Source: Escherichia coli (GTDB taxonomy: Bacteria > Pseudomonadota > Gammaproteobacteria > Enterobacterales > Enterobacteriaceae). From it: DNA of 64,000 nucleotides. This document shows, one piece after another, positions 9,001 through 15,000 of the stretch; within the stretch, counting starts at the first letter, position 1, and every line of letters starts with the position of its first letter. Location: assembly GCF_001677475.2 (NCBI RefSeq), contig NZ_CP015229.1. One strand, 5' to 3'. A program made the position numbers.

Positions 9001-12000
9001 TCAAGTCGATGATGATAGACTTGCAGAACTTATTCCTGATTTTTATGTCTTTCCAGAAAAAAGTGTAAGCTATAATATACTAAAGCAAGGTAAGCATGCT
9101 TTTATTTTGAGTATTGGTAACAGAGCAATAATGCATTGTGCAAGGTAAACTTAAATAGATAACAAAAAGATGGAACCTCGTTAATCATAAAACAATAAAA
9201 TTAAATATGCTTGTAGTATATGCCAGTATAAAGCATCAAAGTTTTGATCAACATCTTTCATTTTAGATATCACCTTGCAATGTAAAATATCATGTATCAA
9301 CAACATCTGGTGCAAATCCATGAGTCGAACTCAACATTCATCTTAGCTCTATTATTATTCCTTCGTACAGTCGATGTAAACAATACAGAAAGAGGATTAT
9401 TAAGAACCAGTTTACTTAGTGAATCAATAGAGGAAAGGACTAACGTTTCTTTAAAAGAATTGATTTCATCATCTGTTAAACTAAACTCATCATTGACAGA
9501 TCGTGAGATATAACTGTTTTTAACTTTACTCTTTACGTTGACTTTACTGACAGAATTAACATTCACATATCTTGATTTTAGTGCCCATGATGTTGTTTGC
9601 GTGAGAACCTTCTCAGCATTAAGGAATTTTTTTAACGGAATCCTTGGTTTCTTTTTCGAGTCCGAATTTACAATATCATGCATATAGACCATTTCATGAA
9701 TCTGCGAAAACTCAATGTCCATTATATACCTCACATTTTTACCGTGACTCGATGTTACTGTTCAATAATCACCTTCCATCAATACTAAATTTAATACCCC
9801 TAATGTGCCGATAACAAATATAGTCATTCTACGTAACGTCTCCATAAGGTGATAACCTTGATCAAATGAATTTCGAAAATAATAAAAGAAATCTTTTGAG
9901 ATGTTTGTCACGAATAAAGCTATATATGTTACCAATATCATTTCGAGTGTGCACACTATCTATCTGTTTTTTCAGGATATAAAAAACAACATGTAAGTTA
10001 TGTAAATTGCCGATGCTACTAAGTAACATTATGGTAAAAAAAGTAAAAATGAGCGATTTTTGATAGAATAAAGCATGAGAAAAGGTGATATTTGACATTA
10101 TCAGAAGCTGCGAATTCGGATTTTGCTCTAATCAAATGAGAGAAATGTAAAATGAAGCCACGAAATATTAATAATAGCCTACCACTGCAACCATTAGTTC
10201 CTGATCAGGAGAACAAAAATAAGAAAAATGAAGAGAAATACGTGAATCCAGTTAAAATTACGATGAGGTCTGGTTTAAATTATATTGAACAAGAATCTCT
10301 TGGAGGAAAATATCTAACACATGATTTGTCAATAAAGATAGTGGATATTTCTGAAGAAATAATTCAGCAAGCAATATTATCGGCTATGAGCATATATAAA
10401 TTTCCGATAACAGATGATTTAATGAGTATGGCTACAAATGAACTCATAAAACTGGCCAAAATAGAGAATAATTTAGACCTGAATAAATTCTCTACTATAT
10501 GCACCGACGTTCTATCCCCCCTCGTCACCAGACATAATAAAGAAAAAAAACCAGACGACTTACTACCCTTCGCAAAAATCCCCTTTTTAATTTTCATCGA
10601 AAAAATGGAAATTGATAATATGAATCAAGGTCATGCATATTAAGGCATTTATGAAATGTCGTAAATAAGATAACTAATAAGGTGAATATTAGCAAAACAA
10701 CTAATGACATTATTGGTTTATAGTGGTCAGTATTTTTACTAATAATGAACCAATATACCCATAAGCAATGCAAGCTTAAAACTCATAATTCAAAAAAGAT
10801 AAATGCAAAAAAATGATGAGTCAATTAATAATAATTTAGCATCACGAAACACATCACAGAGGAATATTATGATCACAGATACACTTGAAATATTCAATAA
10901 CAGTGATGAATGGGCAAGTCAACTAAAACACGCATTATCACAAGGAGAAAATCTGGCATTACTACATGGATTGACTCCTGATATCCTTGATAGAATATAT
11001 GCATATGCATTCGACTACCATGAAAAAGGTAATATAACGGACGCAGAAATTTATTATAAATTTCTGTGCATTTATGCGTTCGAAAATCATGAATATCTAA
11101 AAGGTTTTGCATCAGTATGCCAGTCAAAAAAGAAATATCAACAAGCATATGACCTTTACAAACTAAGTTACAATTACTCCCCGTATGATGACTATTCAGT
11201 TATTTATCGTATGGGTCAATGTCAAATTGGGGCTAAAAATATCGATAACGCAATGCAATGTTTCTATCATATTATTAACAATTGTGAGGATGAAAGTGTT
11301 AAGAGCAAAGCGCAGGCATATATTGAACTCTTAACTGATAATTCAGAAGATAATGGCTAAGCATTACAATCTTTTGGTTAAAATTGCTGGTTATAGTGCA
11401 GTTAACTACTATGACCAGCTTCTCTTATGTTTTCTTAAATCAACATCTTAAAACAGTTAAGCACACACTATAAATTATTATTTTTCAACGCGTTAGAGAA
11501 CAATCTATTTTATCAAAATTGAATAAGGCTATTTCAGATTACATCACTGAATTCCTAAGATAAATTAGTGAACACAACCATAGATATGTCGAATGTAAAC
11601 TCCTATAGCATTAATGACACATAAATATGAATAGCCACAATTTCTATTGCTTATGCAGGATGCAAGAAACCAATTTTTTCATAGAGGTTAACTAATGGAC
11701 TTAGAAAATAAATTCTCATATCATTTTCTTGAGGGATTAACGCTCACGGAAGATGGAATTCTTACTCAAGGAAATGAGCAGATTTATATTCCACCGAAAG
11801 AGTTAGGAGTATTGATCGTATTACTTGAATCCGCTGGTCATGTTGTCCTGAAAGATATGATCATCGAATCAGTATGGAAAAATATTATTGTAAGTGACGA
11901 GTCCCTGACAAGATGTATCTATTCTTTGCGCTGCATTTTTGAAAAAATTGGCTATGATCGTTGCATAGAAACAATCTACCGGAAAGGTTATCGTTTCAGT

Positions 12001-15000
12001 GGACAGGTTTTCAAAACTAAAATAAATGAAGATAACACTTCAGACTATTCCATAGCTATATTTCCTTTCACCACTTCATTGAATACTCTGGATCCATTAA
12101 TACTTAATCAGGAATTAGTGCAAAACATTTCGAATAAAAAAATCGATGGCCTTTATACCTATCCGATGGCTGCGACAAATTTTTGTAATGATCACATATC
12201 GCAAAATTCATTTTTGAGAAGATTCAAGCCAGATTATTTCGTTACAGGAAGAATAAACCAGAATAACGCGGTGAAAACTTTATACATTGAACTGATCGAC
12301 GCTAAAAATCTTTTCCTCATCGCCAGTAATCATCTTCCTGTTGATGAACTACATAACACATCACAATTTATTATAGATAATATCCTTCAAACGGTACATA
12401 ATCCAGAGCGATCTGTAAGATTAGCTAAATCAGATCAAGGCTACAAGAATCATTATTTATCAGATGAACTGTTGGCTGGTAAGAAAGAACTTTACGAGTT
12501 TACACCTGAAAGCATTTACAGGGCTATGACTATATTTGATGGATTACAAAATAAAAGTGATATACAGACGCTAAAAACAGAATGTTATTGTCTGCTAGCG
12601 GAATGCCATATGTCTTTGGCACTTCATGGAAAGTATGAACTTGAACTTGCTGCTCAAAAAGCATTAGAGCTTTTAGATTATGTATCAGACATAACCACTG
12701 TCGATGGAAAAATTTTAGCTATTATGGGGCTGATAACTGGTCTGTCTGGACAAGCAAAAGTATCTCATATCTTATTTGAACAGGCTAAGATACACTCAAC
12801 TGATATAGCCTCTCTCTACTACTATAGGGCACTAGTCCACTTTCATAATGAAAAAATTGAAGAGGCAAGAATTTGTATAGACAAATCACTACAACTCGAA
12901 CCCAGAAGACGAAAAGCAGTTGTGATAAAAGAGTGTGTAGATATGTATGTGCCTAACCCGCTCAAAAGCAACATGAAACTCTACTATAAAGAAACTTCGA
13001 GTGAAAGCCATCGAGTTATAATTGACAACATTTTGAAACTAAAGCAACTGACAAGAATTTGTATGCGATAAATCTTTATTGTCGCAATTTTATTGTTTAG
13101 ATGTATGCAACTGGTTATTTAAACAACAGAGATGAAAATATCTAAGATATTTACCTTATTGCAATATATATCAAATACTCTAGATTAAAAAGTATTGTGT
13201 ATAGGCTATTGGCCTGGACAAATAAAAAAGGGAACTTTATGACTAATCCAATCAAAATGAATAATTTTTCTCAAAGTTTAAATATAGCAACCGCAACGGG
13301 TGATGAAGTCGTTTCATTAGATAAACACATCACCACCAGTGCTACTGATACAGATCAAATACAAGCATTTATAGTTTCAACATGGATGGCATCTTTTCAA
13401 AATGATATGTATTCGAAAGATAATCCTATCTCTCCTTACTATGAACTGGAATGGTAGACAATTGACCACTTAAATGATTAACGAGATACTGATTATATTA
13501 GTATCTCGTTCCTTTCCTTCAATCCTACACATAAAAATATATGCGCTTACCCAAAGTTAAAATCTTAGCCGTCTTCATGTTTTCTATATTAATTACAAAA
13601 ATGTCTTTCGCCAGTAGCGCTTGCTTTAATGAAGCAGGATCAATTTTCAGAATCGAACCAAATTTGATCAAAGCTATCGCTCTTGTTGAAAGTAATTTAA
13701 AAAATGATAGCATCGGCAAGAACAGGGATAAGAAAAACAATATAAAAAGTTTTGATTATGGTTTAATGCAGATAAACCAGATGCACATTCCCATGTTAAA
13801 AAAACGTGGAATAATAAAAGATGAACGAGATTTGTTAGATAACCCCTGTCTGAACATTAAAATAGGGACCGAGATTTTATATAATCATTTTTCACGTTGT
13901 GGGGTAACGTGGCAATGTCTGGGGACTTATAACGCGGGTTTTGCAATGGAAAACCAAAAAAAGAGGCTGCAATATGCAAAAAAAATATATGTTGTATATA
14001 CCAGACTTAATGAAATAGACAAGCGTAAGGCTTTAGCAAAATGAGCCTAAAGCCTCTTTTTTTTTATATAGTGCAAACGCCCATACGTAAAGCTGTTTTG
14101 ATCAACTCGATACCACTGTGAACATCTAATTTCTTCATGATATTGAGTCTATGAGTTTCGACTGTTTTCCTGCTTAACTGCAAGAAATTAGCGATTTCTT
14201 TGTTTGTTTTTCCATCAGCTATGAGTTGTAGTATTTCAGACTCACGATTTGTAAGTTGATTATCAGAGGAATATCTTGAAGATATTTTTTCACAATCCAT
14301 ATGTACACTATCAAAATAAGTGTAACCATTACTAATCGAATCAATAGCGCGATTTAGTTTCGCCGGGTGACTGGTTTTCCATACGCATCCTTTCGCACCG
14401 GCTTCAAGCAATTTTATTGAATCAATATACGGCATTTTTGCTACAAATGTAATAATATGAGCATCTATTTTATGCGATTTAACCCATTTTATGAGTTCGG
14501 ACCCCATCATTCCACCTGCAAATTCTCCTAAAATAAATATTTGGGCTGCAGATTTGTTACACTCCGCTATAGCTTTCTTCAGATCTTTATAGCCCCCAAC
14601 AACCTCATATAAATCGGGATAATGTCCGAGAAATCCAATTATCCCATCAATCATAAACGGCTGCTGATCTGAAACTACAATTTTAATTTTTCCCATATAT
14701 TCATCCTGAGTGTAAATGCTATAACGCATTCATTTATAATCATCCCTTCCATTATTATTATAAGCAAAATCCAAAGAATACATTGATGAAATAATAATGA
14801 AATATAATTAAAAATAAAATTTTCGCGTAAGCAGAATAACACCAGTGTTGAAAAATCATTAGGCGTTTAAAATATTAGGATTAGATTATATTCAAGTCAT
14901 TAAACCGGAGACAATGATCTATAAGTCCTCTGGGTTCGTCAAATCAGAATTATTCATAGCCAAATAATCTATTTCACACATTCTTTCAACTAAATAATGT

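Follow-up and report, generated by a model that had tools for sequence, protein, structure and literature searches.

What does a class II type III secretion chaperone serve when the genes beside its own encode no translocators? The question is raised by a stretch of 64,000 nt of Escherichia coli DNA (contig NZ_CP015229.1, the whole of which is referred to here as the window), where ygeF, ygeG, ygeH, ygeI and an iagB-like gene form an arm of five open reading frames (ORFs) at 10152-14044, all on the plus strand and all where a first-pass annotation had put them. That annotation regarded the two small proteins YgeF and YgeI as candidate cargo of the chaperone YgeG. The arm is the already catalogued chaperone and regulator part of the second type III secretion island of E. 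coli, ETT2, reviews of which describe ygeG as a sicA-type chaperone gene and ygeH as a regulator gene, and leave ygeF and ygeI (b2853) without a stated function (PMC3977695, PMC11068852). Our answer, which we hold to be probable rather than secure, is that YgeG pairs with the regulator EivF within this known regulatory arm, and that ygeF and ygeI are genuine Escherichia-only genes whose products are not cargo of the translocator type.

The chaperone YgeG, the regulator EivF and the hilA-iagB parallel

The gene ygeG (10869..11360, plus strand) encodes a tetratricopeptide repeat (TPR) chaperone of class II (IpgC/SicA/LcrH type) with 163 residues and an isoelectric point (pI) of 4.7. Its NCBIfam profile scores are 124 bits for SicA (E 5e-36) and 79 bits for LcrH_SycD, both below the respective equivalog cut-offs of 184 and 104.8 bits; YgeG is a member of the family and an equivalog of neither. 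The matches among PDB sequences are IpgC (E 6e-32), PcrH (1e-9), SycD (1e-5) and AcrH (2e-4), and Pfam TPR_3 is recorded on all YgeG homologues, so that the chaperone class proposed at first pass is borne out. Within E. coli, where we sampled complete genomes at even steps down the full match ranking, ygeG measures 492 nt in every genome with a full-length match, and its ratio of nonsynonymous to synonymous substitution rates (dN/dS) against K-12 is 0.15. A 71%-identical YgeG also led us to the corresponding locus of E. albertii. An upstream in-frame ATG at 10803, which is used by many ENA gene calls, would add 22 residues (10803-10868) and give a product of 185 residues; we favour the 163-residue form because the E. 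albertii orthologue has 164 residues and because a good Shine-Dalgarno sequence (AGAGGA) precedes the start at 10869.

The immediate neighbours of ygeG are ygeF and ygeH, and the gene does not lie directly upstream of translocator genes. No SipB/C/D-like translocator gene was found among the ORFs of the island or in the annotation of strain 135, the nearest complete genome, and none appears in published ETT2 gene tables (PMC3977695, PMC7232297), one of which enters ygeG as the sicA/ipgC equivalent in an ETT2 column lacking sipBCD, iacP and sptP (PMC7232297). Homologues of the translocators, EipB, EipC and EipD, are encoded with a chaperone of their own, EicA, at the eip locus (eicA-eipBCD-eilA), which adds a further class II chaperone and a further HilA-like regulator to its SipB/C/D-like translocators and is thought to work with ETT2, but which is unlinked, lying at selC and outside the window (PMC11068852, PMC7058095). 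Since the eip locus has its own chaperone, YgeG is left without an obvious translocator client.

An intact candidate partner of another kind is present in the same island. The gene eivF (31097..31846, minus strand), outside the coordinates of the arm, is full length and encodes an InvF-type AraC regulator (NCBIfam InvF, 184.8 bits, E 1.7e-54), which is the expected partner of YgeG in co-activation. The parallel is with SicA-InvF of pathogenicity island 1 (SPI-1) in Salmonella and IpgC-MxiE of Shigella: YgeG is a clear homologue of IpgC and SicA, and the island holds an intact InvF homologue in EivF. In those systems, however, the translocator genes follow directly after the chaperone gene and their secretion frees the chaperone, whereas the ETT2 arm has none in cis. 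From this analogy we infer that YgeG most likely co-activates EivF; it is an IpgC/SicA-type chaperone whose neighbouring translocator genes have been lost, and it would serve EivF. A pairing in the InvF-SicA manner, which had been suggested for YgeG with EivF or YgeH, is not new and exists in the literature as EivF with YgeG (PMC9241512). In an avian strain, deletion of ygeG causes espE3 transcription to drop (PMC10463865).

The next gene of the arm, ygeH (11695..13071, plus strand), has a good Shine-Dalgarno sequence and encodes a HilA-family transcriptional regulator of 458 residues, with an N-terminal winged helix of the OmpR/ToxR type and a TPR-like C-terminal region (weak TPR matches at residues 255-427). 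The protein scores 1072 bits against the NCBIfam YgeH equivalog NF008870 (cut-off 800) and 264 bits against the HilA/EilA family, and acts as a HilA-type activator. Against K-12 or O157, dN/dS is 0.09-0.10 for ygeH and 0.05-0.07 for ygeK. According to PMC7232297, which cites PMC4210603 for it, YgeH of strain 042 substitutes for HilA in Salmonella.

The arm closes with the iagB-like gene (13541..14044, plus strand), whose product is a specialised lytic transglycosylase of 167 residues that matches NCBIfam IagB over its whole length (125.6 bits, E 1.3e-36, under the 208-bit equivalog cut-off). Its N terminus, MRLPKVKILAVFMFSILITKMSFASS, is hydrophobic and signal-peptide-like, Pfam SLT is recorded on the orthologues, no Shine-Dalgarno sequence was found in front of the gene, and the gene is frameshifted in K-12. 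The protein is the IagB-type enzyme that clears peptidoglycan. The hilA-iagB pair is known as a mobile unit of synteny in islands of the SPI-1 type (PMC7232297). The claim that ETT2 reproduces this arrangement holds, in that a HilA-family regulator gene is followed on the same strand by that of an IagB-type transglycosylase; ETT2 differs in having the 72-codon ygeI and a conserved hairpin in between, in both E. coli and E. albertii. In Salmonella SPI-1, no gene is known to intervene between hilA and iagB.

Two small proteins restricted to Escherichia

Neither YgeF nor YgeI has a match in Pfam, NCBIfam, PHROG, PADLOC or the PDB sequences, and a tblastn search of 72,556 plasmids, including those that carry type III secretion systems, returned only mislabelled E. 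coli chromosomes. Word-indexed searches gave E. coli proteins only for YgeF and 58 matches, all from E. coli, for YgeI. An exhaustive phmmer search of 1.84e9 representatives yielded 21 matches to YgeF, all of them Escherichia YgeF fragments except one orthologue, which is 50% identical and lies in a syntenic yqeI-yqeJ-yqeK-ygeF-ygeG context; the C-terminal tail motif of YgeI, sought in 241 million metagenome records, was present at 50 loci, every one of which encodes YgeI of the E. coli or E. albertii type. ygeF and ygeI are both real coding genes, confined to Escherichia. Paralogy among YgeF, YqeK and YgeI was also considered, and none was found.

The description of both products as soluble proteins without a known domain stands, as they are hydrophilic and carry no transmembrane-like segment: over windows of 19 residues the Kyte-Doolittle value peaks at 1.08 in YgeF and 0.39 in YgeI, as against 2.28 in the membrane protein EpaQ. 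The classical cargo logic of the first-pass annotation is not supported for either. Hydrophobic or transmembrane segments of the kind found in translocators are absent from YgeF and YgeI, neither contains a match to the chaperone-binding motif P/VxLxxP, and profile searches, PDB sequences included, did not find remote similarity to translocators or needle-tip proteins, for which they had been proposed as a check. Only relaxed look-alikes of the motif occur: YgeF has LPLQPL at 10-15 and PFAKIP at 139, and YgeI has VSLDKH.

The better preserved of the two genes is ygeI (13239..13457, plus strand), which has a good Shine-Dalgarno sequence and encodes an acidic protein of 72 residues (pI 4.1). After a variable segment (residues 1-21) come a constrained DEVVSLD block, an amphipathic helix (~37-57) and the tail DMYxKDNPISPYxxLEW at the C terminus. 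The gene has 72 codons in the window, K-12, O157, E. albertii and a divergent Escherichia lineage (L013), and its length is 219 nt in all 39 of the sampled genomes that match it over the full length. In the comparison with E. albertii, purifying selection on residues 22-72 is strong (proportions of nonsynonymous and synonymous differences, pN 0.27 and pS 0.84; p=2e-5) and 14 of the 17 tail residues are identical, while residues 1-21 cannot be distinguished from neutral; within E. coli, dN/dS is 0.35-0.58. Wherever YgeG occurs, in E. coli, L013 and E. albertii, YgeI accompanies it. The gene is thus well kept, and the constrained helix and tail look like a partner-binding module, through which we infer that YgeI would act on a partner protein. 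Its freely drifting N terminus could accommodate a type III secretion signal but is no proof of one. Conserved, constrained in helix and tail, free at the N terminus and kept beside ygeG and ygeH where the apparatus is gone, YgeI shows a pattern that suits a small partner or regulator no less well than a secreted effector. An acyl-carrier (IacP-like) reading of the VSLD block was rejected, with no PP-binding match even at E<=10.

Long-stem hairpins lie after ygeG, ygeH and ygeI. The terminator-like hairpin that begins 26 nt past the ygeG stop (11386..11419, plus strand) has a 13-bp stem and a folding energy of -19 kcal/mol (z -3.7) and lacks a conserved equivalent in E. albertii (z -1.1). The hairpin between ygeI and the transglycosylase gene (13480..13510, plus strand; 14-bp stem, -16.6 kcal/mol, z -4.8) has a counterpart in E. 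albertii (L010, ~10649-10685) with a 12-bp stem, an identical core (GAGAUAC/GUAUCUC) and a U-rich tail, which was missed by a consensus terminator scanner, its loop being 13 nt, and seen by direct folding. This hairpin probably acts as a terminator, or else as a stabilising stem-loop at the 3' end. It has been kept although the intergenic DNA around it can scarcely be aligned any longer between E. coli and E. albertii. In K-12, a chromatin immunoprecipitation sequencing (ChIP-seq) peak of EsigmaS is assigned to ygeI (PMC4447067) and GadX peaks are reported at yqeK, ygeF and ygeH (PMC4918353). Given the bounding hairpins and the EsigmaS peak, ygeI may form a small transcription unit of its own.

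The history of ygeF (10152..10643, plus strand) is different. It encodes a 163-residue orphan in the window, with a conserved core (residues 1-~132) and C-terminal ~30 residues that vary by lineage. Its Shine-Dalgarno sequence is mediocre (GAGAG ~11 nt from the ATG), and of the good ribosome-binding sites ascribed to both small genes only that of ygeI survives scrutiny. Lineage-specific indels in two homopolymer tracts, C6 at 10516-10521 and A8 at 10543-10550 (plus strand), switch the frame of the C-terminal part, replacing only the last 15-30 residues, and the 3' end is found in all three frames across E. coli lineages. The resulting proteins have 163 residues (window), 148 (K-12) or 145 with unrelated C termini, and in L013 the protein has 134 and ends at the same point; residues 1-~132 are common to all. 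The switching may reflect purposeful variation through slippage, or plain decay. The ygeF span is 492 nt in 11 of the 39 sampled genomes and 490 or 491 nt in the remaining 28, and the shifted products are each singletons in a cluster look-up. RefSeq labels ygeF as frameshifted in K-12 and O157, where the shorter alleles still encode residues 1-~132. We considered from the span lengths that ygeF might be a pseudogene in most E. coli and rejected this, the translated alleles retaining the 132-residue core, which corrects the view of ygeF as a mere pseudogene in K-12-type strains.

YgeF is missing from the E. albertii locus, in which ygeG, ygeH, the 72-codon ORF, the transglycosylase gene and the apparatus genes are present. 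The spacer between yqeK and ygeG measures 586 nt there, and only ~66 nt of it match the corresponding ~720 nt of the window (10068-10790). Among 482 E. albertii genomes none has ygeF, and ETT2 is otherwise nearly intact in 61% (PMC8767325). As E. albertii keeps ygeG without ygeF, YgeG cannot depend on YgeF, and the proposal that YgeF is cargo of YgeG is disfavoured. An AlphaFold2 model of the YgeF monomer has a mean predicted local distance difference test score (pLDDT) of 42, in which residues 1-66 come out as disordered and 68-130 as three weak helices, and a Foldseek search of the PDB with this low-confidence model gave nothing better than E=1.8. YgeF is an accessory protein specific to the E. 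coli clade, young or fast-evolving, weakly constrained and predicted to be mostly disordered; it is an add-on without which ETT2 and YgeG manage in E. albertii, and neither YgeG nor the secretion machine can require it.

Two further observations concern the DNA around ygeF. In the divergent lineage (L013 and L005) YgeF is 49-50% identical to that of the window, the neighbouring genes being 83-96% identical, and the ygeF segment of L013 (7274-7678) has a dS of 0.74 as against 0.10-0.41 in the flanking genes; this points to a deeper or different history than that of its neighbours, by local recombination or hyper-divergence. Separately, K-12 (L002) lacks ~240 nt of the yqeK-ygeF intergenic region (window ~9850-10090, alignment columns 129-365) that are kept in the window and L013 and partly in E. 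albertii, a loss that would take most of any ygeF/yqeK promoter region.

Roles for YgeF and YgeI weighed

Several observations weigh against the reading set out at the start, in which YgeG pairs with EivF and the small proteins are not translocator-type cargo. In the sole published test of EivF and YgeG, treated as homologues of MxiE and IpgC, their co-production left icaR and icaT unactivated, the two promoters being heterologous ones of the Shigella type (PMC9241512), and a scan of the window for MxiE-box-like sites gave 0 matches with up to three mismatches allowed, a weakly informative result in that EivF's own site is not known; together, these leave the co-activator role of YgeG unproven for ETT2. 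The N termini of YgeF and YgeI are the most polar and acid-free of the island, ranking 1 and 2 of 31 proteins, which leaves secretion conceivable. No confident model was obtained for a partner of either protein: a fused AlphaFold2 model of YgeI, YgeG and YgeF with Gly-Ser linkers reached a mean pLDDT of 34, failed on its YgeG control (only 29-68 in that domain) and has no power on binding. The intact 163-residue allele of ygeF is common, being found on at least 1000 contigs, and the core, compared between the window and L013 (pN 0.278, pS 0.472, p=0.004), is under weak purifying selection and so is not junk. Finally, the genome samples are not phylogenetically independent.

Among the alternatives, the one that survives best, improbable as we judge it to be, is that YgeI is a small regulatory ligand of YgeG or of the TPR-like C terminus of YgeH and tunes ETT2 gene activation, with export possibly relieving the effect in the manner of ExsE or OspD1. 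ExsE of Pseudomonas, LcrQ/YscM of Yersinia and OspD1 of Shigella are likewise small and for the most part unstructured; their genes lie among or close to type III secretion regulatory genes, and they act by binding a chaperone or an activator. YgeI belongs to the same size class and is apparently without a globular fold, but it shares no sequence similarity with them; the resemblance is a general one, and binding and secretion of YgeI are hypothetical. The concentration of constraint in residues 22-72 and the tail, the acidic character with a single predicted helix, the position of ygeI between a TPR-bearing regulator gene and the rest of the arm, and its possible status as a separate transcription unit (PMC4447067) would all suit such a ligand, and the fact that apparatus-less strains keep ygeI along with ygeG and ygeH suits a regulator better than an effector. 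Against this idea, remnant islands of the E. whittamii type retain ygeH without ygeI, the dN/dS of ygeI within E. coli is fairly relaxed, and the single-helix prediction is taken from the fused model that failed.

Next in order, and likewise improbable, is the proposal that YgeF, YgeI or both are type III substrates held in the cytoplasm by YgeG, taking the place of the missing translocators as cargo. The two genes flank the chaperone gene, and co-inheritance with the chaperone is seen for YgeI, though not for YgeF. No acidic residue occurs before position 18 or 22 in their polar N termini, and the ~66 N-terminal residues of YgeF are predicted to be disordered, as in many effectors. The LPLQPL sequence of YgeF (L-x-L-x-x-L, with the spacing of P/VxLxxP) is invariant between orthologues that are 50% diverged overall, and the conserved VVSLD block of YgeI fits two of the three motif positions. 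The role itself is vacant, as no ETT2 substrate has yet been identified (PMC7058095, PMC11068852). Against this, the canonical motif and the hydrophobic segments of translocators are absent from both proteins, and a conserved run of six residues at a background identity of ~43% is unremarkable (estimated p~0.3). The polarity metric is weak, given that the known substrates of the island, EprI, EprJ, EivJ and EivE, do not rank high on it. Moreover, ygeG, ygeH and ygeI are intact in K-12-type strains that have no apparatus for secretion, all E. albertii lack ygeF and keep ygeG (PMC8767325), and secretomes of ETT2-intact strains have revealed neither such proteins nor any ETT2 substrates (PMC7058095, PMC6030553).

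The weakest alternative, that one or both small ORFs are non-functional, being decaying remnants or chance ORFs in an AT-rich, degrading island, draws on the known mutational attrition of ETT2 (PMC3977695), on the frameshift labels and the ygeF lengths in 28 of 39 genomes that differ from the 163-codon form by other than a multiple of three, on the lack of a confident fold and of any homologue of YgeF outside Escherichia, and on a core dN/dS against K-12 of 0.43 that is not significant, but it is very doubtful in view of the identical length of ygeI across lineages with saturated dS and its purifying selection, the estimated chance of ~0.003 that a 72-codon ORF would stay open in DNA of ~32% GC, and the core that variant ygeF alleles still encode with pN below pS.

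The ETT2 island around the arm and what the arm means

The arm lies in a low-GC block (31-36%) that extends from ~6 kb to ~34 kb of the window. Its sequence is 99.1% identical to that of E. coli strain 135 and 93.6% identical to that of K-12, and the segment was found in 3600 of 5426 complete E. coli genomes, chromosomal in every case. In the matching loci RefSeq uses the names ygeG, ygeH, ygeI and lytic transglycosylase; it annotates yqeH-I-J-K upstream of the arm and ygeK, orgB/A, eprK-H, etrA, epaS-O and eivJ-F downstream, with the island ending near a tRNA gene. Every apparatus ORF between 14000 and 34100 of the window is full length, including epaS (373 residues), epaO (315), eivJ (298), eivC (439), eivA (686), eivG (567) and eivF (249). 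At least 80% of the apparatus region is held by 933 genomes, and in K-12 and O157 many apparatus ORFs are deleted or broken. Frameshifts are annotated in epaS, epaO and eivJ of strain 135. The right-hand end of the island is marked by a tRNA gene (34283-34353, minus strand, 71.6 bits), where GC climbs back to ~50%.

A 97-residue ORF directly 3' of etrA (19443-19736, plus strand) has a lipoprotein-like N terminus, weakly matches the C-terminal portion of InvH (E 7e-9, far under the cut-off) and may be a short InvH-like pilotin. At the other end, yqeK (9297-9722, minus strand; 141 residues) is a third orphan of the arm, divergently oriented from ygeF and without a family match; in E. albertii its product is 40% identical and still 141 residues long, with a dN/dS of 0.41. 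RefSeq annotates a 26-codon ORF between yqeK and yqeJ.

A genome scan with YgeH brought to light only minimal ETT2 remnants, in E. whittamii (L007) and Escherichia sp. E1V33 (L009). They consist of yqeH-yqeI-yqeJ and a ygeH homologue whose product has 482 residues and is 62-63% identical, after which come a tRNA gene, actS and xdhA; ygeF, ygeG, ygeI and the apparatus are all missing. With the other ETT2 genes gone from these remnants, the regulator genes outlast everything else.

The locus is already known, and the remaining interest, which is modest, lies in YgeI. On our preferred reading, in which YgeG serves EivF, YgeI may be a small partner protein or a secretion substrate, and it is a candidate for either. 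We also entertain, as a distinctly speculative model with little probability, that YgeI plays the translocators' role: its helix and tail would lodge in the TPR groove of YgeG, or else in YgeH's TPR domain, and its exit through the needle, directed by its N terminus, would free the chaperone to act on EivF-dependent genes. If true, this would be a minimal, translocator-independent feedback loop of chaperone and co-activator, and YgeI would be the first ETT2 substrate encoded in the island. Some two thirds of E. coli genomes carry ETT2, which influences the virulence of several pathotypes. No island-encoded ETT2 substrate has been identified, and whether ETT2 secretes anything is debated (PMC11068852, PMC7058095). 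The present result narrows the field, with YgeI as a conserved, constrained and ETT2-specific candidate for the first island-encoded substrate or regulator.

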